Positions 3,082-10,991 of a stretch of DNA of 64,000 bases are shown here, piece after piece; the stretch's first letter is position 1; every line of letters begins with the position of its first letter. A program made the translations under genes and the position numbers. The stretch comes from Nanobdellota archaeon (GTDB lineage: Archaea > Nanobdellota > Nanobdellia > Pacearchaeales > GW2011-AR1), in assembly GCA_021799535.1 (NCBI GenBank), contig JAJZAH010000002.1, positions 16,950-80,949 of the forward strand. Direction: 5' to 3'. The notes beneath the pieces were generated by a model that worked only from the letters and a program-made list of their open reading frames with translations, did not search any database and was not told the origin of the DNA.

Positions 3082-3960
3082 ATGAACAGGGATGAGATTC
3101 TAAAGGCAGGAAAGATTGCGAGCGAAGTCAAATCTTGGATAAGGCCAAAAGTGAAAAAAGGCGCTCCATTGCTTGAACTTGCTGAAATGATTGAGAAGAA
3201 GATACGTGACCTTAAAGGGGGCATTGCTTTCCCGGTCAATCTCTCAATAAATGAATATGCTGCTCACTATACCCCTTCACATGATGATGACTCTAGCGCC
3301 CATGGCTTACTTAAAGTTGATTTTGGGGTCGAGGTCGGCGGGTGGATTGCAGATAACTCTTTTTCAACTGATCTGGAAGATTCAAGCTTGAATAAGAGGC
3401 TGATAAAATCTACGGAGGAAGCTCTTGAAAATGCTGAGCATGTACTTTCAAATGATACTTCCCTTGGAAAGATAGGGGAGAAAATAGAGGAAACAATCAA
3501 ATCTCATGGGTTCAATGTTGTTGCGAATCTTTCTGGGCATTCAATGGAGCAATACGATCTTCATGCAGGCGTGACTGTGCCGAATGTGAATAATAATTCT
3601 CAAGCTAAGATTGGTGAGGGGCTCTATGCAATAGAACCATTTGCCACAGATGGTAAAGGGCTTATCCATGAAGGAAAGAAAGGTAATATATTTATCTTGC
3701 AAAAGGACAAAAATACGCGCGATTCTCTTGGCAGAGAGATACTTGAATTTATAAAAGACAATTACGGCTCTCTCCCTTTCGCTTCACGATGGATAGTGAG
3801 AGAATTTGGCACCAGGGCAATTTTGTCCCTTAATCATCTTGAGAATGAAGGGATACTTTATCAATATCCTGTCTTGACTGAGGAAAAGGGGAAATTTGTT
3901 GCGCAATCAGAAAATACCTTCCTTATAGAAAAAGGTAAAGTTATAAATACGAGTAAATAA
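3082..3960 (+). CDS. map: Methionine aminopeptidase, type 2 (archaeal)
   Basis: AFPVNLSINEYAAHYTP, the metal-ligand context (D..D..H..E..E) and the 292-aa length are typical of archaeal MetAP2. Confidence 0.85.
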   Translation: MNRDEILKAGKIASEVKSWIRPKVKKGAPLLELAEMIEKKIRDLKGGIAFPVNLSINEYAAHYTPSHDDDSSAHGLLKVDFGVEVGGWIADNSFSTDLEDSSLNKRLIKSTEEALENAEHVLSNDTSLGKIGEKIEETIKSHGFNVVANLSGHSMEQYDLHAGVTVPNVNNNSQAKIGEGLYAIEPFATDGKGLIHEGKKGNIFILQKDKNTRDSLGREILEFIKDNYGSLPFASRWIVREFGTRAILSLNHLENEGILYQYPVLTEEKGKFVAQSENTFLIEKGKVINTSK

Positions 3961-3964
3961 TTTT

Positions 3965-6205
3965 TCAATTTTCAGCCTTCTTTTCCCTCATCTTTTGCTT
4001 TTTTAAACTCTCTTTTTTTGGCAAGGCCTTAATTACACTGTTCATATCGACACTTTCGTGCACATATCCATGCTCATTCTCGTTTTTTTCTTTCCCGATA
4101 GCTTTCAAAGCAGTGTCAAAATCTTCTTTGGTTATCTTGAGTTCGCCTGGTTTTTTTAAGTTGTAATTTCTCTTTATGGCATTGACACCTGCAAATCTTA
4201 CAACAGCTTCTATGTCTGCTCCGGTCCATCCTTCTGTTGATTTTGCCATCTCTTCAATCTTTACATCTTTATCAGCAGGCATTTCTTTCATGTGAACATG
4301 GAATATCTCTTTTCTTGTCTCTTCATCAGGCATTGGGAGTTCCACGTGCGCGTCTATTCTGCCTGGCCTCAAGAGCGCAGGGTCTATCAGGTCTTTCCTA
4401 TTTGTTGCTGCAATTACCATCACATTTTCAAGTTCTTCTACACCATCGAGTTCTGTCAGCAGCTGATTGACGACTTTCTCTGACGAATCATTAAAAGATC
4501 CTCTGGATTTTGAGATTGAGTCGAATTCATCGAAGAAGATTATGGCAGGGGCTACCTGTTTGGCTTTTTTGAAAATTTCGCGGATATGTTTTTCGCTTTC
4601 TCCGACCCATTTTGATATGAGCTCAGGCCCTTTCACTGAAATGAAATTTGCATTTGCTTCATTTGCAACAGCTTTGGCTAAAAGTGTCTTTCCTGTTCCC
4701 GGAGGGCCGTAAAGCAATATCCCCTTCGAAGATTTTATCCCAGCAGCTTTGTAAAGATCGGGCCTCATAAGGGGAAGTTCGACGAGTTCCCTTAATTTAT
4801 CTTTTGCTTCTTTCAGCCCGCCTATATCCTCCCATTTTACGTGGGGCTTTTTGATAAGGACTTCTCTCATTGCAGATGGTTCAACTTTCTTAAGAGCCTC
4901 TATAAAATCTTTTCTTGAGACTTTTATTTTGTCAAGCACTTCAGTCGGGATTTTTTCCTGCATCTTTTTTAGGTCATTGAAGAAGGGTTTTATTGATTTT
5001 AGTCCGGCTTCTTTGCTCAATACTTCCAGATCTGCTCCGGTGTAACCTATAGTTCTTATTGCGAGCTCGTTAAAGTCCACATCCTGAGCGAGAGGCATAC
5101 CTCTTGTATGTATCTGTAATATCTCTTTTCTTCCTTCCTCAGTCGGGGGGTTTATTCTCAGTTCTCTGTCAAATCTTCCGGGTCTTCTCAAAGCTTCATC
5201 TATATCGTCAGGTCTGTTCGTCGCAGCCATCACGACAATTTGTCCTCTGGATTTTAAACCATCCATTAAGGTAAGGAGCTGTGCCACTATTCTTTTTTCT
5301 GTTTGGTCTGTGCCCTCTCCTCTTTTTGGAGCGATTGAGTCTATCTCATCTATGAAGATTATTGACGGCGAGTTCTTTTGTGCTTTCTCAAATATCTCGC
5401 GGATATGTTTTTCGCTTTCCCCGTAATATTTGCTCATGATTTCAGGTCCGGCTATTGAAAAAAACGCTGAGTCAGTTTCTGTCGCGACCGCTTTTGCGAG
5501 AAGCGTCTTTCCTGTTCCCGGAGGGCCTGTCAGCAAGACGCCCTTTGGAGCCCCGACGCCCAATTTCTGAAACACTTCCGGATGCTTCATCGGAAGTTCC
5601 ACCATCTCTCTTATAGCATCGATTTCTTCTTTTAGCCCACCTATGTCCTCGTAACTCACGCCAGTTGCCCTTAGATCTCCACTATAGACTTCATCAGACA
5701 CGGTAAGTTTTGTTGAGGGAGTCACAATAACATTGCCTTTTGGGGAAACTTTTGAGACAGCATAGCTTAATCTTGTGCCGAATACATCAATGACTATTTT
5801 CTGTCCGAGTGCAAGCGGCTTCTCAAGAAGCTTGTTGTGAAAGAATTCCGTGGGATTGTCACTGAACTGTATCCCTTCCTGGGTTGGTGATAACGTTATG
5901 GACTCAGCAGGCGAAACTTCTACTTTTTCAACTTTTACATCATCACCTATCGAGAATCCTATGTTTGATCTGACCGTTCCGTCGAGTCTTATTTTTCCTA
6001 TCGATTTATCTCCGTCGAGCGACCTTAATACTTTAACGGCAACTGGAACTTTGCCCTCAATAAGCAGGACTTCTCCCGGGGACAATCCTATCGCTTTCAT
6101 GTCTTTTGAAGATATCCTTGCTATCCCCTTATCTATATCTTCCTGTAGAGCTTCACTTATCTTGAGGTAGAATTCTTTTTCTTCTTTAGATTTTTTAGTT
6201 GTCAT
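3965..6205 (-). CDS. cdc48: Cdc48/VCP-like AAA+ ATPase (two AAA domains)
   Basis: N-domain followed by two Walker A sites (GPPGTGKT twice), two Walker B sites ([16 protein letters not shown]) and second-region-of-homology motifs. Confidence 0.9.
4662..4731. repeat. 70-nt tract identical to 7707-7776 (D2 Walker A region of the two cdc48 genes)
   Basis: Read base by base: tttgcaacagctttggctaaaagtgtctttcctgttcccggagggccgtaaagcaatatccccttcgaag occurs in both genes. Confidence 0.9.
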
Positions 6206-6653
6206 TTTCTCCCCTTATTTTTTTGGCTATTTTACGTAACTCCTCCGCTGATTTTCTCGGTCCAAGTTGTGTTGAAATATAACCTTCATAATTTTTAAAA
6301 TATTTTTCTTCTTTTGCCCACGTTTCTTCGAATTTTTCACTAAGTCCATAAATTGGGTACAATTTTATATGAACATGGTTTACTCCAAGGCCTTCCATCA
6401 CAATAGCAACTCGTTTAACCTTTAGTTTTCTTTCTAATAATTTTGCTACTTTTTTTGCGGTGACCATAAGGTCAGAAAATTCTTTATCCGGCAGGTCTGT
6501 TGCGTCACTATCGAAATGTTTTTTTGTCAAAACAAGAGTCATTCCTTCCGTGTTAGGATTAATATCTAAAATTGCCAAGTATCTCTTGTCTTCCCAAACT
6601 TTTTCCGATTGTATCTCTCCGCTTGCTATTTTGCAGAAAATGCACCCCGTCAT
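6195..6653 (-). CDS. HIT-family (histidine triad) nucleotide hydrolase/transferase
   Basis: N-terminal CIFCKI zinc-like motif and the triad region GVNHVHIKLYP, where the third His position reads Lys. Confidence 0.75.
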   Translation of the reverse strand: MTGCIFCKIASGEIQSEKVWEDKRYLAILDINPNTEGMTLVLTKKHFDSDATDLPDKEFSDLMVTAKKVAKLLERKLKVKRVAIVMEGLGVNHVHIKLYPIYGLSEKFEETWAKEEKYFKNYEGYISTQLGPRKSAEELRKIAKKIRGENDN

Positions 6654-7036
6654 TTTATTTGCGCCTCAATTTCAAGTATTCCATTGTTGAATGTCCAGTC
6701 ATATTTTTTAATCTTTATATTTGGTAAGTTTTTCCTTATCCTAATTCCTTTTTCAAGCTTCCCTGCAAGATAGCTCTGAACACCATTCAGTTCTTTTTTC
6801 TTTGCAACAATCTCTATTGATCCTTTGCTAATATTAATGCTTATATCTTTTTTTGAATATCCGTATAACTCGAAAACAAAGTAAGCTTTGTCGTCTTCCT
6901 CTATATAGTCCACCATTCTCTCTTCCCTTTCGCTTTTCACTACATCCCTTGAGGAAGAAGTTCTTGGCCCGGTAGTTTCCTGGAAAAATTCCTTTATTAT
7001 GCTGTCAAAAGGGTCATCATCTCCGAAGAATCCCAT
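6650..7036 (-). CDS. hsp20: Small heat-shock protein, Hsp20/alpha-crystallin family
   Basis: Alpha-crystallin-domain pattern (YFVFELYGYSKKDISINISKGSIEIVAKKK ... WTFNNGILEIEA), 128 aa. Confidence 0.8.
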   Translation of the reverse strand: MGFFGDDDPFDSIIKEFFQETTGPRTSSSRDVVKSEREERMVDYIEEDDKAYFVFELYGYSKKDISINISKGSIEIVAKKKELNGVQSYLAGKLEKGIRIRKNLPNIKIKKYDWTFNNGILEIEAQIK

Positions 7037-7042
7037 TTTAAA

Positions 7043-9373
7043 TTATCCAAAATAGCCCCCTCCTTTTTCAGCACTCCCTGATTTAGCATTATTAAGAAAT
7101 TGCTCCTCGATTTTTTTGTAGATTTCTATTGATTGCTTTGTGACGCTAGGTTTTACTTTTTTCTCTGCTTCGTCAAAATGTTTTTTTGAAACTTCCCCTG
7201 CATTCATAGATTCTCTCAAGGCAACCATTGCCGCCTCACGGACAAGCGCTTCGAGGTCTGCTCCTGTATAGCCTTCTGTCTCTTTAGCGAGCTCTTTTAT
7301 TTTAACATCTTTCCCTAGCGGCATATTCCTTGTGTGGATTTTTAGTATTGTTTCTCTTCCATCTTCTTCGGGCGCGTTTACGAGGAGGATCTTATCGAAT
7401 CTTCCCGGTCTTAGGAGTGCTGTATCCAGCATGTCCGGTCTGTTTGTTGCGGCTATTACGAGAATCTCTTTTATGTCTTCAAGGCCATCCATTTCGGCGA
7501 GCATTTGGTTCAAGACCCTTTCAGTGACTTTGTTTGTGTCAAATCCCCTTTTTCCCGCCAATGCATCTATTTCGTCGAAGAAAATTATACATGGTGAAAC
7601 CTGCCTTGCCCTTTCAAATATTTTCCTCATTCCTTCCTCCGATTTCCCGACCCACATAGAAAGGAGTGAGGGGCCTTTGACCTGGATGAAGTTTGCCTCG
7701 GATTCCTTTGCAACAGCTTTGGCTAAAAGTGTCTTTCCTGTTCCCGGAGGGCCGTAAAGCAATATCCCCTTCGAAGGTCTTATCCCCATTCTTTTGAAGC
7801 TTTCTGGATGTTTGATCGGCCATTCGACAGCTTCTTTTAGTTCCTGTTTGACTTTGTCAAGGCCTCCCACAGACTCCCAATCCACATTTGGCGTCTCCAC
7901 AAGGACTTCTCTCATTGCAGACGGCCTCACAACTTTCAGAGCCTCTGCAAAGTCTTCCTGTCTTATTATTAGTTTTTCAAGCACTTCATGCGGGATGACT
8001 TCATCGTCGAGTTTTATCTTGTTTATGTTTTTTCTAAGGACATTTATCGCGGCTTCCTTAGCGAGAGCCTCAAGGTCTGCCCCTACAAATCCGTGGGTCA
8101 TTGAGGAAATTTTTTCAAGGTCCACATTTTTATCAAGAGGCATCCCTCTTGAATGTATCTTTAAAACCGCAAGTCTTCCTTTCTTGTCCGGAACTCCTAT
8201 TTCTATCTCGCGGTCGAATCTTCCTGGTCTTCTGAGTGCAGGGTCTATTGAATTTATCCTGTTTGTAGCTCCTATAACCACTACTTTTCCCCTTGCATTC
8301 AGCCCGTCCATCATCGTTAACAATTGTGATACAACTCTTCTTTCAACTTCACCCTGAACTTCTTCTCTTTTTGGAGCAATTGCGTCTATCTCATCTATGA
8401 AAATTATAGATGGTGCGTTTTTTTCGGCTTCCTCAAAGATGTTCCTTATTTTTTTTTCACTTTCCCCGTAGAATTTGCTCATGATTTCAGGTCCATTTAG
8501 AAGGATGAAATGGGAGTCGGACTCATTTGCAACAGCTTTGGCTAAAAGTGTCTTTCCTGTTCCCGGAGGGCCATGCAGCAAAACCCCTTTTGGGGGGCTG
8601 ACTCCAAGTTTTTGAAATATCTCGGGGTGTTTCATTGGTATTTCAACCATCTCTCTTATTTTTTTTATCTCCTCCGAGAGTCCGCCTATATCTTCATAGT
8701 TTATTGATGGAATTTTCTCTTCTATCATTTCAACAGCCTTTGGATTCAGTATGACCTCTGTGTTTTCGGTAATCATAACAGGGCAGTTTGGCATCGTTGA
8801 TATGACTATGAATTTAATCTGTGCGACTCCGCCTCCGAGGTTTCCAAATCCCATCCCTCCGAGTATGTCTCCGAGGTTTCCAAAAACATCATTCAAATCT
8901 CCCATGTCTTCTCCCATGAGGTCCTTCCTTCTTTGAACCCCCCCAAGGACAATCGTGTCCCCTTTTATGACTGTCCTTCCAAGGAGCCCCCTCCTAAGCT
9001 CGTTTGGATCCCCCTGCACCATTATTCCTTTTTGCGCAGGCGCGATTGTTATCTTTTTAGCTTCTTTGACTTCTGCTTTCCTCACGATCACTTCATCGCC
9101 TATAGATACACCTGCATTTTTCCTAAGGATTCCGTCTATTCTTATTATTCCTTCTCCTACATCTGCAGGGTAGGCTCTGTCTGCGATTGCAATAGTGGAT
9201 TTATTCTTTCCTATTAATATAGCGTCCCCTCTCTTGACATCAATCTCTTTCATAAGCTCAGTGTCCAGTCTTGCTATTCCTTTGTAAGCGTCATCCTGCA
9301 AAGCTTCTACTACTTTGAGTTTTAATTCTTTTTTTGAGCTCTCCTCCTTACTCATCTTTGTCCCCTCCTGCAA
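7043..9373 (-). CDS. cdc48: Cdc48/VCP-like AAA+ ATPase, second paralog
   Basis: Two GPPGTGKT Walker A sites and two Walker B sites. The N-domain carries a Gly-rich insertion. The true start could be the Met at codon 7. Confidence 0.9.
7707..7776. repeat. 70-nt tract identical to 4662-4731
   Basis: See the feature at 4662-4731. Confidence 0.9.
8523..8572. repeat. 50-nt tract identical to 4659-4708 (D1 Walker A of cdc48 paralog 2 versus D2 of paralog 1)
   Basis: tcatttgcaacagctttggctaaaagtgtctttcctgttcccggagggcc, read base by base. Confidence 0.9.
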
Positions 9374-9680
9374 AACAAGTTTTGCTGAAAAAAATTTTCT
9401 TTGAAGTCCATGAGAAACCTCTCCCCGAACTTTCTTTTTCTTCAGATTCTCTGTAAAATTTCTGCTCTCCTGTTTTTCTGTCCTTCATAAAAATATATCT
9501 TCCCATTATCCGTCCTTTTCCTTTTTCATCGGATTTATCCAGAAGAATCTCTTTTGATATTAAGGACTTTTCCCCTTTATTTTTATTTTTTTCTGAGATT
9601 TTCTCAACTTTATATTTCCTGCCGCTTATATTTACAATATCTCCCTCCCTGAGGCTATTTGATTTTTTAGTGAATTCCAT
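9348..9680 (-). CDS. Hypothetical K/E-rich protein (110 aa)
   Basis: ORF overlapping both neighbours within the minus-strand operon. No motif recognised. Confidence 0.4.
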
Positions 9681-10044
9681 TTTCTTCGTCTTTCCCTTTA
9701 TTTATTATATTGTCAAAAGTCAGGCTTAACCTTCCTGATTCTTCAAAACAGAGTCTCACCATATCGTTCATCAGTTTTTCCTGTTCCTGCATAAAAGATA
9801 CAATCTCTTTTGGTATCGAAACGGCATAGCTATTTCCAACAATTCGCATCTTGACTTTAAATTCTTTTTGACGGAGTTCTCTGAATTTATTATATTCCTC
9901 TTCATCCTGCGGATGGATTATTTTGTCATGTCCCGAAGGGCATACAAGTGCCCTGAGTTTGAATCCATTTCTTATCACGCTTGCTTTTTCCATCGCTTTT
10001 CCGCATTTTGTGCATAGGATTTTGTGCTCAAATATATCTTGCAT
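9667..10044 (-). CDS. Zinc-ribbon plus AbrB/SpoVT-like DNA-binding protein
   Basis: CTKCGK...CPSGH ribbon followed by MRIVGNSYAVSIPKEIVSFM, which resembles a swapped-hairpin AbrB/MazE domain. It is the first gene of the cdc48-hsp20 operon. Confidence 0.55.
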   Translation of the reverse strand: MQDIFEHKILCTKCGKAMEKASVIRNGFKLRALVCPSGHDKIIHPQDEEEYNKFRELRQKEFKVKMRIVGNSYAVSIPKEIVSFMQEQEKLMNDMVRLCFEESGRLSLTFDNIINKGKDEENGIH

Positions 10045-10060
10045 GTATATACATAGTGTG

Positions 10061-10070
10061 TATATTTAAA
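10061..10070 (-). promoter_or_regulatory. TATA-like box (TTTAAATATA on the minus strand) for the 10044-3965 operon
   Basis: Centred about 21 nt upstream of the ATG at 10044, which implies a leaderless or near-leaderless mRNA. The adjacent 12-nt perfect palindrome ATGTATATACAT (10043-10054) overlaps the start codon. Confidence 0.4.
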
Positions 10071-10117
10071 AATGTTGTGGATTCCCTAGCCGGCATGGCC
10101 AAAGCTTTTTTGCAAAA

Positions 10118-10282
10118 TCAGTCCTTATCAATCTCTTTTATTATCGTTTTTGAGTTTTTTACAACTTCCTCAAGGACATCTTCTTCAGAGTAAGAAGGAT
10201 TTTTCCTTTTCACTTTCATTGCAAAATCAGCTCCGGCAATGACTGCCCTCTTTAATACGCCGTCTTCAATGTTTTTCATCAT
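10118..10282 (-). CDS. Possible small protein (54 aa), not in the ORF track
   Basis: ATGATG start and TGA stop, translating to MMKNIEDGVLKRAVIAGADFAMKVKRKNPSYSEEDVLEEVVKNSKTIIKEIDKD. It fills an otherwise empty 317-bp gap. Confidence 0.3.
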   Translation of the reverse strand: MMKNIEDGVLKRAVIAGADFAMKVKRKNPSYSEEDVLEEVVKNSKTIIKEIDKD

Positions 10283-10361
10283 ATTCTAAGTGATCCTAAA
10301 TTTAAAAATTTAATGAATGATTATCCGCCAGGCTTAAAAACCCCGAGAGTCTTTTTAAAAA

Positions 10362-10991
10362 ATGGATAAAGAGAAGTGGAAAAAATTCTGGAAGAAATTT
10401 TGGTTCATAGTATGGAAAGATGATTCCATCAAAGGCTGGATAATCTCGCTTATTTTTCTTCTTATCCTAATAAGAGGGGTATTTTTTCCGTTGCTTTCCT
10501 TAGCGACTGGAACTTCTTTGCCGCTTGTCATTGTTGAGTCATGCTCTATGTATCATCAAGGAGGGGAGCTTTTCTCAAACTTTAACGGCTGGTGGACAAT
10601 GCACGAGGAGAAATATGCCCAGAAAAGTATAAACAAAAGCGAGTTTTCATCATTTCCCTTTGCAAATGGGCTCAATAAAGGAGATATACTTTTTGTCACG
10701 GGGGTGAACCCAGCTGATGTAAAGATTGGCGATATAATTATATTCAATGCCGGTATGAGCGCTCCGATAATACACAGGGTCATGAGCATAAAAGATGAAA
10801 ATGGGGCTTACTTTTTTTCGACTGAAGGGGACAATAACAATGGCCAGCTGTCAGTAGAAGAAAATATCAGTCAAAACCAGCTCGTCGGGGAACCCAGGGC
10901 TATCGTTCTTCCTTATGCAGGATGGATAAAACTTATATTTTTTGAAGGCTCCAAACCTCCTTCTGAAAGGGGATTCTGCGTTCAGGATTAA
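10362..10991 (+). CDS. Signal peptidase I, archaeal/Sec11 type (S26B)
   Basis: N-terminal TM segment, catalytic-Ser context VESCSMYH, the IIHRV His box and the GDNN motif (TEGDNNNG). Confidence 0.75.
   Translation: MDKEKWKKFWKKFWFIVWKDDSIKGWIISLIFLLILIRGVFFPLLSLATGTSLPLVIVESCSMYHQGGELFSNFNGWWTMHEEKYAQKSINKSEFSSFPFANGLNKGDILFVTGVNPADVKIGDIIIFNAGMSAPIIHRVMSIKDENGAYFFSTEGDNNNGQLSVEENISQNQLVGEPRAIVLPYAGWIKLIFFEGSKPPSERGFCVQD

Follow-up and report, generated by a model that had tools for sequence, protein, structure and literature searches.

How is a tightly packed set of proteostasis genes controlled in an archaeon, and by what regulator? The question is raised by positions 3965 to 10044 of the window (the whole stretch of 64,000 nucleotides (nt) from contig JAJZAH010000002.1 of a Nanobdellota archaeon that was analysed here), whose minus strand carries six closely packed open reading frames (ORFs). 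They include genes for two Cdc48-type AAA+ unfoldases, Cdc48A and Cdc48B, a small heat-shock protein (Hsp20) and, in first place, a protein of 125 amino acids (aa) that joins a zinc ribbon to an AbrB/MazE-like domain and is here called ZnAbrB. Comparison with related genomes makes it likely that this is a self-repressed proteostasis operon, in which ZnAbrB would bind 13-nt-spaced repeats at its own promoter. ZnAbrB and Cdc48A are paired across the class, and the repeat is nearly exclusive to the promoters of ZnAbrB, hsp20 and other AbrB-type genes. Genes and promoter elements of the window are listed in the order of transcription.

10063 to 10070, minus strand: TATA box TTTAAATA, inside TTTTTAAATATA, 19-26 nt 5' of the ATG
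10058 to 10065, minus strand: predicted operator repeat 1, ATATACAC (RTATAYAC in orthologues), overlapping the TATA box at its 3' edge
10045 to 10052, minus strand: predicted operator repeat 2, GTATATAC, abutting the ATG, 13 nt from repeat 1 and the core of the palindrome at 10043-10054
10032 to 10039, minus strand: degenerate repeat 3, AGATATAT, 13 nt further on, over codons 2-5 (QDIF), with two mismatches
9667 to 10044, minus strand: ZnAbrB, 125 aa, with a zinc ribbon (C11, C14, C35, H39), an AbrB/MazE-like domain (VKMRIVGNSYAVSIPKEI...) and a disordered K/E-rich tail
9348 to 9680, minus strand: K/E-rich orphan ORF, 110 aa, filling the variable spacer between ZnAbrB and Cdc48A
9388 to 9394, minus strand: run of seven T on the coding strand, about 35 nt 5' of the Cdc48A start
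7043 to 9355, minus strand: Cdc48A, 770 aa, double-ring AAA+ unfoldase with a conserved C-terminal tail, G-x-Y-F-G
6650 to 7036, minus strand: Hsp20/alpha-crystallin small heat-shock protein (Pfam, NCBIfam)
6195 to 6653, minus strand: HIT-family protein with the triad HVHIK
3965 to 6205, minus strand: Cdc48B, 746 aa, Cdc48A paralogue (about 49% identity) with a K/E-rich tail and no YFG motif

Conservation of the ZnAbrB-Cdc48A pair

We evaluated the occurrence of ZnAbrB in 41 relatives, in a sample of 301 genomes from across the phylum and, by a strict two-peptide search, in species-level genomes. Orthologues were found in 38 of the 41 relatives, in 64 of the 301 phylum-sample genomes (belonging to many families outside the window's own order) and in 334 species-level genomes, nearly all of which were labelled Pace-, Woese- or Nanoarchaeota. 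Among 1.8 billion representatives, matches were confined to 137 clusters at 50% identity. At every locus with enough flanking sequence, Cdc48A was situated directly downstream of ZnAbrB and in the same direction (20/20, 29/29 and 77/77 loci). A synteny survey had been suggested; the pairing of ZnAbrB with Cdc48A proved to be class-wide, whereas Hsp20, HIT and Cdc48B were genus-level features and the K/E-rich ORF was found in one relative. The conserved core across the class (Pace- and Woesearchaeota-labelled Nanoarchaeota) is ZnAbrB plus Cdc48A alone. Hsp20-HIT-Cdc48B followed Cdc48A in only part of the window's genus, and some relatives had Cdc48A-Hsp20-Cdc48B with no HIT gene; Hsp20, HIT and Cdc48B are younger members of the operon, gained within that genus. 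Elsewhere, the spacer between ZnAbrB and Cdc48A was occupied by a C-terminal extension of ZnAbrB or by unrelated short ORFs.

Other lineages possess Cdc48A without ZnAbrB, at 56-63% identity. Three of five ZnAbrB-less genomes encoded a conserved protein of 135-151 aa (MSVIGFNIAKIDAEKK...) immediately 5' of the Cdc48A orthologue, which may be an alternative partner or regulator. A single ZnAbrB locus was deposited as 'Parcubacteria group bacterium' (JBAZBJ010000020.1) and is probably a mis-binned archaeal contig.

A direct repeat at ZnAbrB promoters

The original prediction placed an autoregulatory site at the start of the first gene, and each of the sequence features on which it drew was recovered. 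The TATA-like sequence TTTAAATATA was present at 10070-10061 on the minus strand, where TTTAAATA was the sole TTTAWATA, and the only canonical TATA box, within 3900-10400. The palindrome ATGTATATACAT at 10043-10054 had no other match in the window with up to one mismatch allowed (0.08 expected), and TGTATAT occurred twice on the plus strand, 15 nt apart (10044-10050 and 10059-10065). The location of the proposed operator, at the start codon, held up, but the palindrome itself did not prove to be the conserved element. Aligned upstream regions of orthologues had a TATA box and then (T)GTATA(C/T)AC, present two to four times up to the ATG. The conserved candidate cis-element is RTATAYAC, directly repeated every 13 nt between the TATA box and the ATG. 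As the second repeat abuts the ATG, the 12-nt palindrome arises locally as a side effect of that repeat and the flanking AT of the start codon. Repeat 3 (AGATATAT) may be a further operator copy.

The TATA box was found in an equivalent position in most orthologous promoters and in many of them began about 26-30 nt 5' of the ATG, implying a leaderless or near-leaderless mRNA. At least one strict copy of the repeat lay within 200 nt in 45 of 50 promoters, and 24 of the 50 had two or more forward copies. Spacings had a mode of 13 nt (17 of 26), and in 25 of the 45 promoters having a copy the last one ended 0-5 nt 5' of the ATG. Predicted operators of orthologues include GTATACAC and GTATATAC variants.

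To evaluate how specific the arrangement was, the 41 relatives were scanned with the tandem pattern TATAYAC-N3-9-GTATAYAC, with the reversed pattern as control. The tandem matched 26 times, 24 of them at the start of ZnAbrB, against one match for the control. The other two matches lay in the 90-nt spacer between Cdc48A and hsp20 of relatives G008 and G016, each preceded by a TATA box of its own, and on this arrangement are read as internal hsp20 promoters with an operator shared with ZnAbrB. In the phylum sample, 41 of the 64 ZnAbrB-positive genomes had a strict tandem no more than 350 nt upstream, mostly within 35 nt, and 41 of 47 matches to the tandem with a 5-nt spacer were situated at ZnAbrB. 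The only other 5-nt-spacer match in a ZnAbrB-positive genome was found 18 nt 5' of an unlinked but genuine hsp20 gene (62.7 bits) in G224, a member of another order, where the promoter reads TATA-repeat-repeat-ATG as it does at ZnAbrB. Since the motif was not found at the unlinked Hsp20 genes of four further genomes (G034, G036, G031 and G024), hsp20 is not a universal target. Tandems of GTATAYAC were also identified 5' of AbrB-only paralogues that score above the PF04014 cut-off (33-34 bits), of an AbrB-like antitoxin with a PIN toxin, of another MazE-like gene and of an AbrB-domain fusion protein. At the Cdc48A orthologues of five genomes without ZnAbrB, the motif was missing together with the regulator. 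Taken together, synteny, tandem specificity and this absence control give strong comparative support to the proposal that the first gene may regulate itself at its own start.

In the host genome (747 kb), strict GTATAYAC occurred at 13 places and the tandem once, at the ZnAbrB promoter. A scan of the same genome that allowed three mismatches returned nothing but AT-rich look-alikes, and no wider regulon was found. One single site, before a gene for a 188-aa coiled-coil protein (C3:59155), overlapped the TATA box of that gene and was judged not significant.

Related words were seen in other settings. In some genomes of the same family, the repeats were located about 90-110 nt 5' of the ZnAbrB ATG and were followed by a leader with a GC-rich inverted repeat, for example ccgccgtgtctgcaaaggcacggtag; an Rfam scan of leaders and promoter regions gave no match. 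Small ribbon-helix-helix genes at six loci (METICLKMDEKLL..., MTTQLVTFKME...) had GTATATAC-N3-GTATATA at their starts, and look like a separate, possibly autoregulated family with a similar word. A palindrome, TATATAC-T-NN-A-GTATATAC, was conserved in several genomes, in two of which it was situated about 280-325 nt 5' of a DnaG-like gene, where no convincing ORF was found; Rfam returned nothing at this palindrome but a nearby tRNA.

Family membership of ZnAbrB

ZnAbrB has a CxxC...CxxxH zinc ribbon followed by the AbrB/MazE-like segment VKMRIVGNSYAVSIPKEIV, which is (nearly) invariant in 30 homologues and contributes to a hairpin-helix signature (x-V-x-x-x-G-N-S-x-x-V-x-I-P-K/R-E). Residues D3, I4 and F5 are likewise invariant or almost so. 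The secondary structure predicted by AlphaFold2 runs zinc ribbon, helix, hairpin, helix. An AbrB-only paralogue that matches the Pfam MazE_antitoxin family (PF04014) at 34.4 bits shares 52% identity with ZnAbrB over 25 residues (E = 5e-9), and hhalign of ZnAbrB against Escherichia coli MazE gave a weak match (probability 16%, E = 0.0016). A profile search of PDB sequences with ZnAbrB returned only chance-level matches (trigger factor, thermosome). From the signature and the paralogue bridge, and not from the Pfam threshold or the monomer model, ZnAbrB is a probable member of the AbrB/MazE superfamily. Characterised AbrB/MazE domains bind DNA, and we predict that ZnAbrB is a DNA-binding autorepressor.

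Weaker relatives of ZnAbrB were zinc-ribbon plus AbrB proteins of 105-113 aa encoded by the second gene of two-gene cassettes. This cassette is widespread; its first gene encodes a protein of 80-100 aa, the two genes overlap or abut, and such cassettes probably form a toxin-antitoxin family paralogous to ZnAbrB. Because AbrB-type genes carry the tandems and ZnAbrB has antitoxin-like relatives, ZnAbrB looks like an antitoxin-type autorepressor that was recruited to a housekeeping gene.

Proposed regulation and alternative explanations

We propose that a ZnAbrB multimer would bind two to three RTATAYAC repeats at 13-nt spacing. These repeats would fill the stretch from the TATA box to the start codon of a probably leaderless mRNA, and their occupation would block recruitment of TBP/TFB or of RNA polymerase. 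Repression would cover ZnAbrB, Cdc48A and, in the window's genus, the fused hsp20-HIT-cdc48B genes, and proteotoxic stress would cause loss of ZnAbrB binding and release the whole set. What we infer here is that ZnAbrB binds DNA and represses rather than activates, where transcription starts, which signal induces the operon and that the six genes are transcribed together.

Some observations weigh against this proposal. The strict tandem was absent from 23 of the 64 orthologous promoters, and GTATATAC-like pairs with 3-4-nt spacers were found at ribbon-helix-helix genes and other promoters, so the octamer alone is not diagnostic for ZnAbrB. With 20.5 bits against a cut-off of 24.7, ZnAbrB missed the PF04014 threshold, and 29 of 30 homologues had a comparable sub-threshold match. 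The AlphaFold2 monomer (mean predicted local distance difference test score, pLDDT, of 72) had strands at 65-69 and 72-76 and then a long helix, leaving the second hairpin unmodelled, and a Foldseek search of this model against the PDB returned nothing with E <= 0.001. A protein partner of Cdc48A, too, would be consistent with strict translational coupling. The main rival is a pure Cdc48 adaptor role: ZnAbrB would be chiefly a stoichiometric protein partner of Cdc48A (an adaptor, a substrate-recruiting or an assembly factor), and the repeats would be bound by another factor or be plain promoter elements. The invariant adjacency of the two genes, often with overlapping stop and start codons, speaks for such a role, as does the disordered, variable and charged C-terminal tail; the swapped-hairpin barrel of AbrB is also said, in work attributed to Coles and colleagues in 2005, to share an evolutionary origin with the double-psi barrel found in the Cdc48/VAT N-domain. 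However, the motif tracks AbrB-type genes even in the absence of a neighbouring Cdc48, marks hsp20 promoters too, and is missing from cdc48 where ZnAbrB is missing in the five genomes examined. It is no general promoter element, since the tandem is single in the host genome, and DNA binding is the established property of AbrB/MazE domains. As a partner role leaves the distribution of the motif unexplained, we regard it as quite unlikely to be the chief function, although partner and regulator roles are not mutually exclusive. A degenerate toxin-antitoxin-like pair, with ZnAbrB as antitoxin and the original toxin replaced, would suit the nearest paralogues, which are second genes of type II-like cassettes behind an 80-100-aa protein, and the weak matches of ZnAbrB to MazE and to a doc-partner antidote family. 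We consider it highly improbable: Cdc48A is a conserved housekeeping unfoldase that occurs once per genome and also without ZnAbrB, the operon has no toxin-like gene, and the partner of ZnAbrB is always Cdc48A. Toxin-like partners were found only for the paralogous 105-113-aa family, and ZnAbrB shows vertical conservation across orders, without a patchy distribution.

Autorepression of the whole set also depends on the six genes forming one unit. All six ORFs were recovered at the coordinates originally predicted, and the junctions were confirmed as overlaps of 14, 4 and 11 nt and a gap of 6 nt between Cdc48A and hsp20; the fifth junction, given before as an overlap of 26 nt, is reduced to 8 nt, because the Cdc48A start kept in relatives is ATG 9355 (MSKEE...) and not TTG 9373. 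Tight packing and the single TATA box uphold the single-unit layout. Internal promoters within coding sequence, or termination at the T7 run (9388-9394), could nevertheless split off cdc48A or hsp20-HIT-cdc48B, with only the first gene, or the first two, governed by the operator. In G008 and G016 a real promoter separates Cdc48A from hsp20, the T7 run about 35 nt 5' of the Cdc48A start is a possible partial termination point, and archaeal promoters may depart from TTTAWATA. Against a split stand the Cdc48A-hsp20 gap of just 6 nt, the overlap of the remaining junctions and the lack of any further TTTAWATA in 6.5 kb of that strand. Internal promoters had been named as a threat to the single unit; none that is canonical was found on the minus strand within 3900-10400, and those before hsp20 in G008 and G016 bear the same operator, so that regulation would stay common and they argue for one regulon. 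A split is therefore unlikely in our view.

A further elaboration, which we find doubtful, is that ZnAbrB is a chaperone-titrated repressor derived from zinc-ribbon/AbrB antitoxins, with Cdc48A acting as co-repressor where the toxin once stood. When idle, Cdc48A would attach to the tail or barrel of ZnAbrB and stabilise it on the 13-nt repeats, and unfolded substrates would draw Cdc48A off and de-repress the operon. If true, such a loop would give archaea an unfolded-protein feedback comparable with HspR-DnaK or with the conditional cooperativity of toxin-antitoxin systems, and would explain why the genes for ZnAbrB and Cdc48A never separate.

Other genes of the operon and its surroundings

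The naming of the six genes as AbrB/zinc-ribbon, K/E-rich, Cdc48, Hsp20, HIT and Cdc48 was borne out by the ORFs and by Pfam and NCBIfam. Both unfoldases exceeded the cut-off of the NCBIfam CDC48 model (TIGR01243; Cdc48A 1062 bits, Cdc48B 930 bits, cut-off 803), and CDC48_N, CDC48_2 and two AAA domains were found in each (Pfam). Hsp20 was marginal in Pfam (PF00011; 21.2 bits against a cut-off of 20.8) and matched the NCBIfam archaeal Hsp20 model with E = 4.7e-11, under the equivalog cut-off. The HIT domain scored 54.5 bits against a cut-off of 21.5 (PF01230). Its triad was H-V-H-I-K in the window and H-x-H-x-K in three relatives (G022, G010 and G006), whereas G008 and G007 retained the canonical H-x-H-x-H (HYHIH, HTHFH), so the lysine variant is confined to a sub-clade.

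No family match was found for the K/E-rich ORF in Pfam or NCBIfam and, apart from relative G022, no homologue among 5.8 billion proteins; the G022 counterpart occupies the same slot with 37% identity. That the ORF is a frameshifted ZnAbrB tail was rejected, as the long C-terminal extensions of ZnAbrB in G006 and G007 are not similar to it.

Close homologues carry the label Candidatus Pacearchaeota. The host assembly (8 contigs, 87% complete) encodes 20S proteasome subunits. Within this 87%-complete genome there was no strong AAA match beyond the two Cdc48 paralogues, and no PAN-type activator was identified. The C-terminus of Cdc48A orthologues is a conserved G-(S/G/N)-Y-F-G (7043-7060, minus strand, in the window), similar in sequence to an HbYX-type proteasome-docking tail. 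An ORF of 54 codons (10118-10282, minus strand) lies between the operon promoter and a divergent gene for a 209-aa protein; it shows 42-63% identity in G022, G006 and G007, has TTTTTAAAT about 18-26 nt 5' of its ATG and had no family match in Pfam or NCBIfam.

Comparison with known systems

According to a 2022 review, archaea have just two known heat-shock regulators, the distantly related Phr and HSR1 (PMC9133787). ZnAbrB, which occurs in at least 334 species-level genomes, is predicted to be a third, non-homologous archaeal stress regulator that would have converged with them on a cdc48-type unfoldase plus hsp20 and on operator placement. Its resemblance to Phr and HSR1 units, pointed out in the original prediction together with the different type of regulator, was upheld: no winged helix-turn-helix (wHTH) family in Pfam or NCBIfam matched ZnAbrB and, as the regulator lacks a winged helix, it is a functional analogue of Phr and HSR1 and not a family member. 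The comparative evidence supports a unit that would work like their heat-shock regulons with a non-homologous regulator. It would exemplify how a DNA-binding module of antitoxin type can be recruited for the control of a housekeeping machine, and the prediction is defined enough (a 125-aa protein and a DNA site of about 35 bp) to be testable in vitro. In the literature on AbrB with Cdc48, on DPANN regulators and on DUF7479, no description of a ZnAbrB-Cdc48 module was found. To our knowledge, gene regulation in DPANN archaea, which cannot be grown alone, is essentially unstudied.

In the HSR1 operon of Archaeoglobus fulgidus, the autoregulator likewise comes first and hsp20 lies in the same operon (PMC9133787). 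Both operons have a repeated or palindromic site 5' of the regulator gene, and that of the window additionally contains the HIT gene, a second Cdc48 and the orphan ORF. Rohlin and colleagues reportedly found, in 2005, a cdc48-type AAA+ ATPase between hsr1 and hsp20 in A. fulgidus, and a second hsp20 promoter that is said to bear an HSR1 site. The regulators differ, HSR1 being a winged-helix relative of Phr and ZnAbrB a zinc ribbon with an AbrB/MazE-like domain, as do the operators (CTAAC-N5-GTTAG for HSR1; predicted RTATAYAC direct repeats with a 13-nt period for ZnAbrB). HSR1 was described in a cultured hyperthermophile, whereas the host here is a small-genome DPANN archaeon of symbiotic type (747 kb), represented by metagenome-assembled genomes only.

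Phr of Pyrococcus furiosus is a negative autoregulator with hsp20 and a VAT/Cdc48-type AAA+ ATPase as core targets (PMC10746257), and comparative sequence suggests the same here. Its 29-bp site lies over the transcription start and blocks recruitment of RNA polymerase (PMC9133787, PMC10746257), a placement that the predicted ZnAbrB operator appears to match (PMC9133787). In contrast to Phr, which has a wHTH fold and 10 or more scattered target genes and has been verified experimentally, the ZnAbrB system has an unrelated fold, comprises a single operon and is known from sequence. Studies of the Phr regulon are said to include those of Vierke and colleagues in 2003 and Keese and colleagues in 2010.

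There is also a likeness to AbrB/MazE/SpoVT autorepressors, type II antitoxins included, with which ZnAbrB shares the GNSxxVxIPK hairpin-helix, small size, a disordered C-terminal tail, repeats at its own promoter and the position of first gene tightly coupled to a downstream partner. Unlike that group, ZnAbrB has a fused N-terminal zinc ribbon, is partnered by a housekeeping unfoldase and not a toxin, and is vertically conserved throughout an archaeal class.

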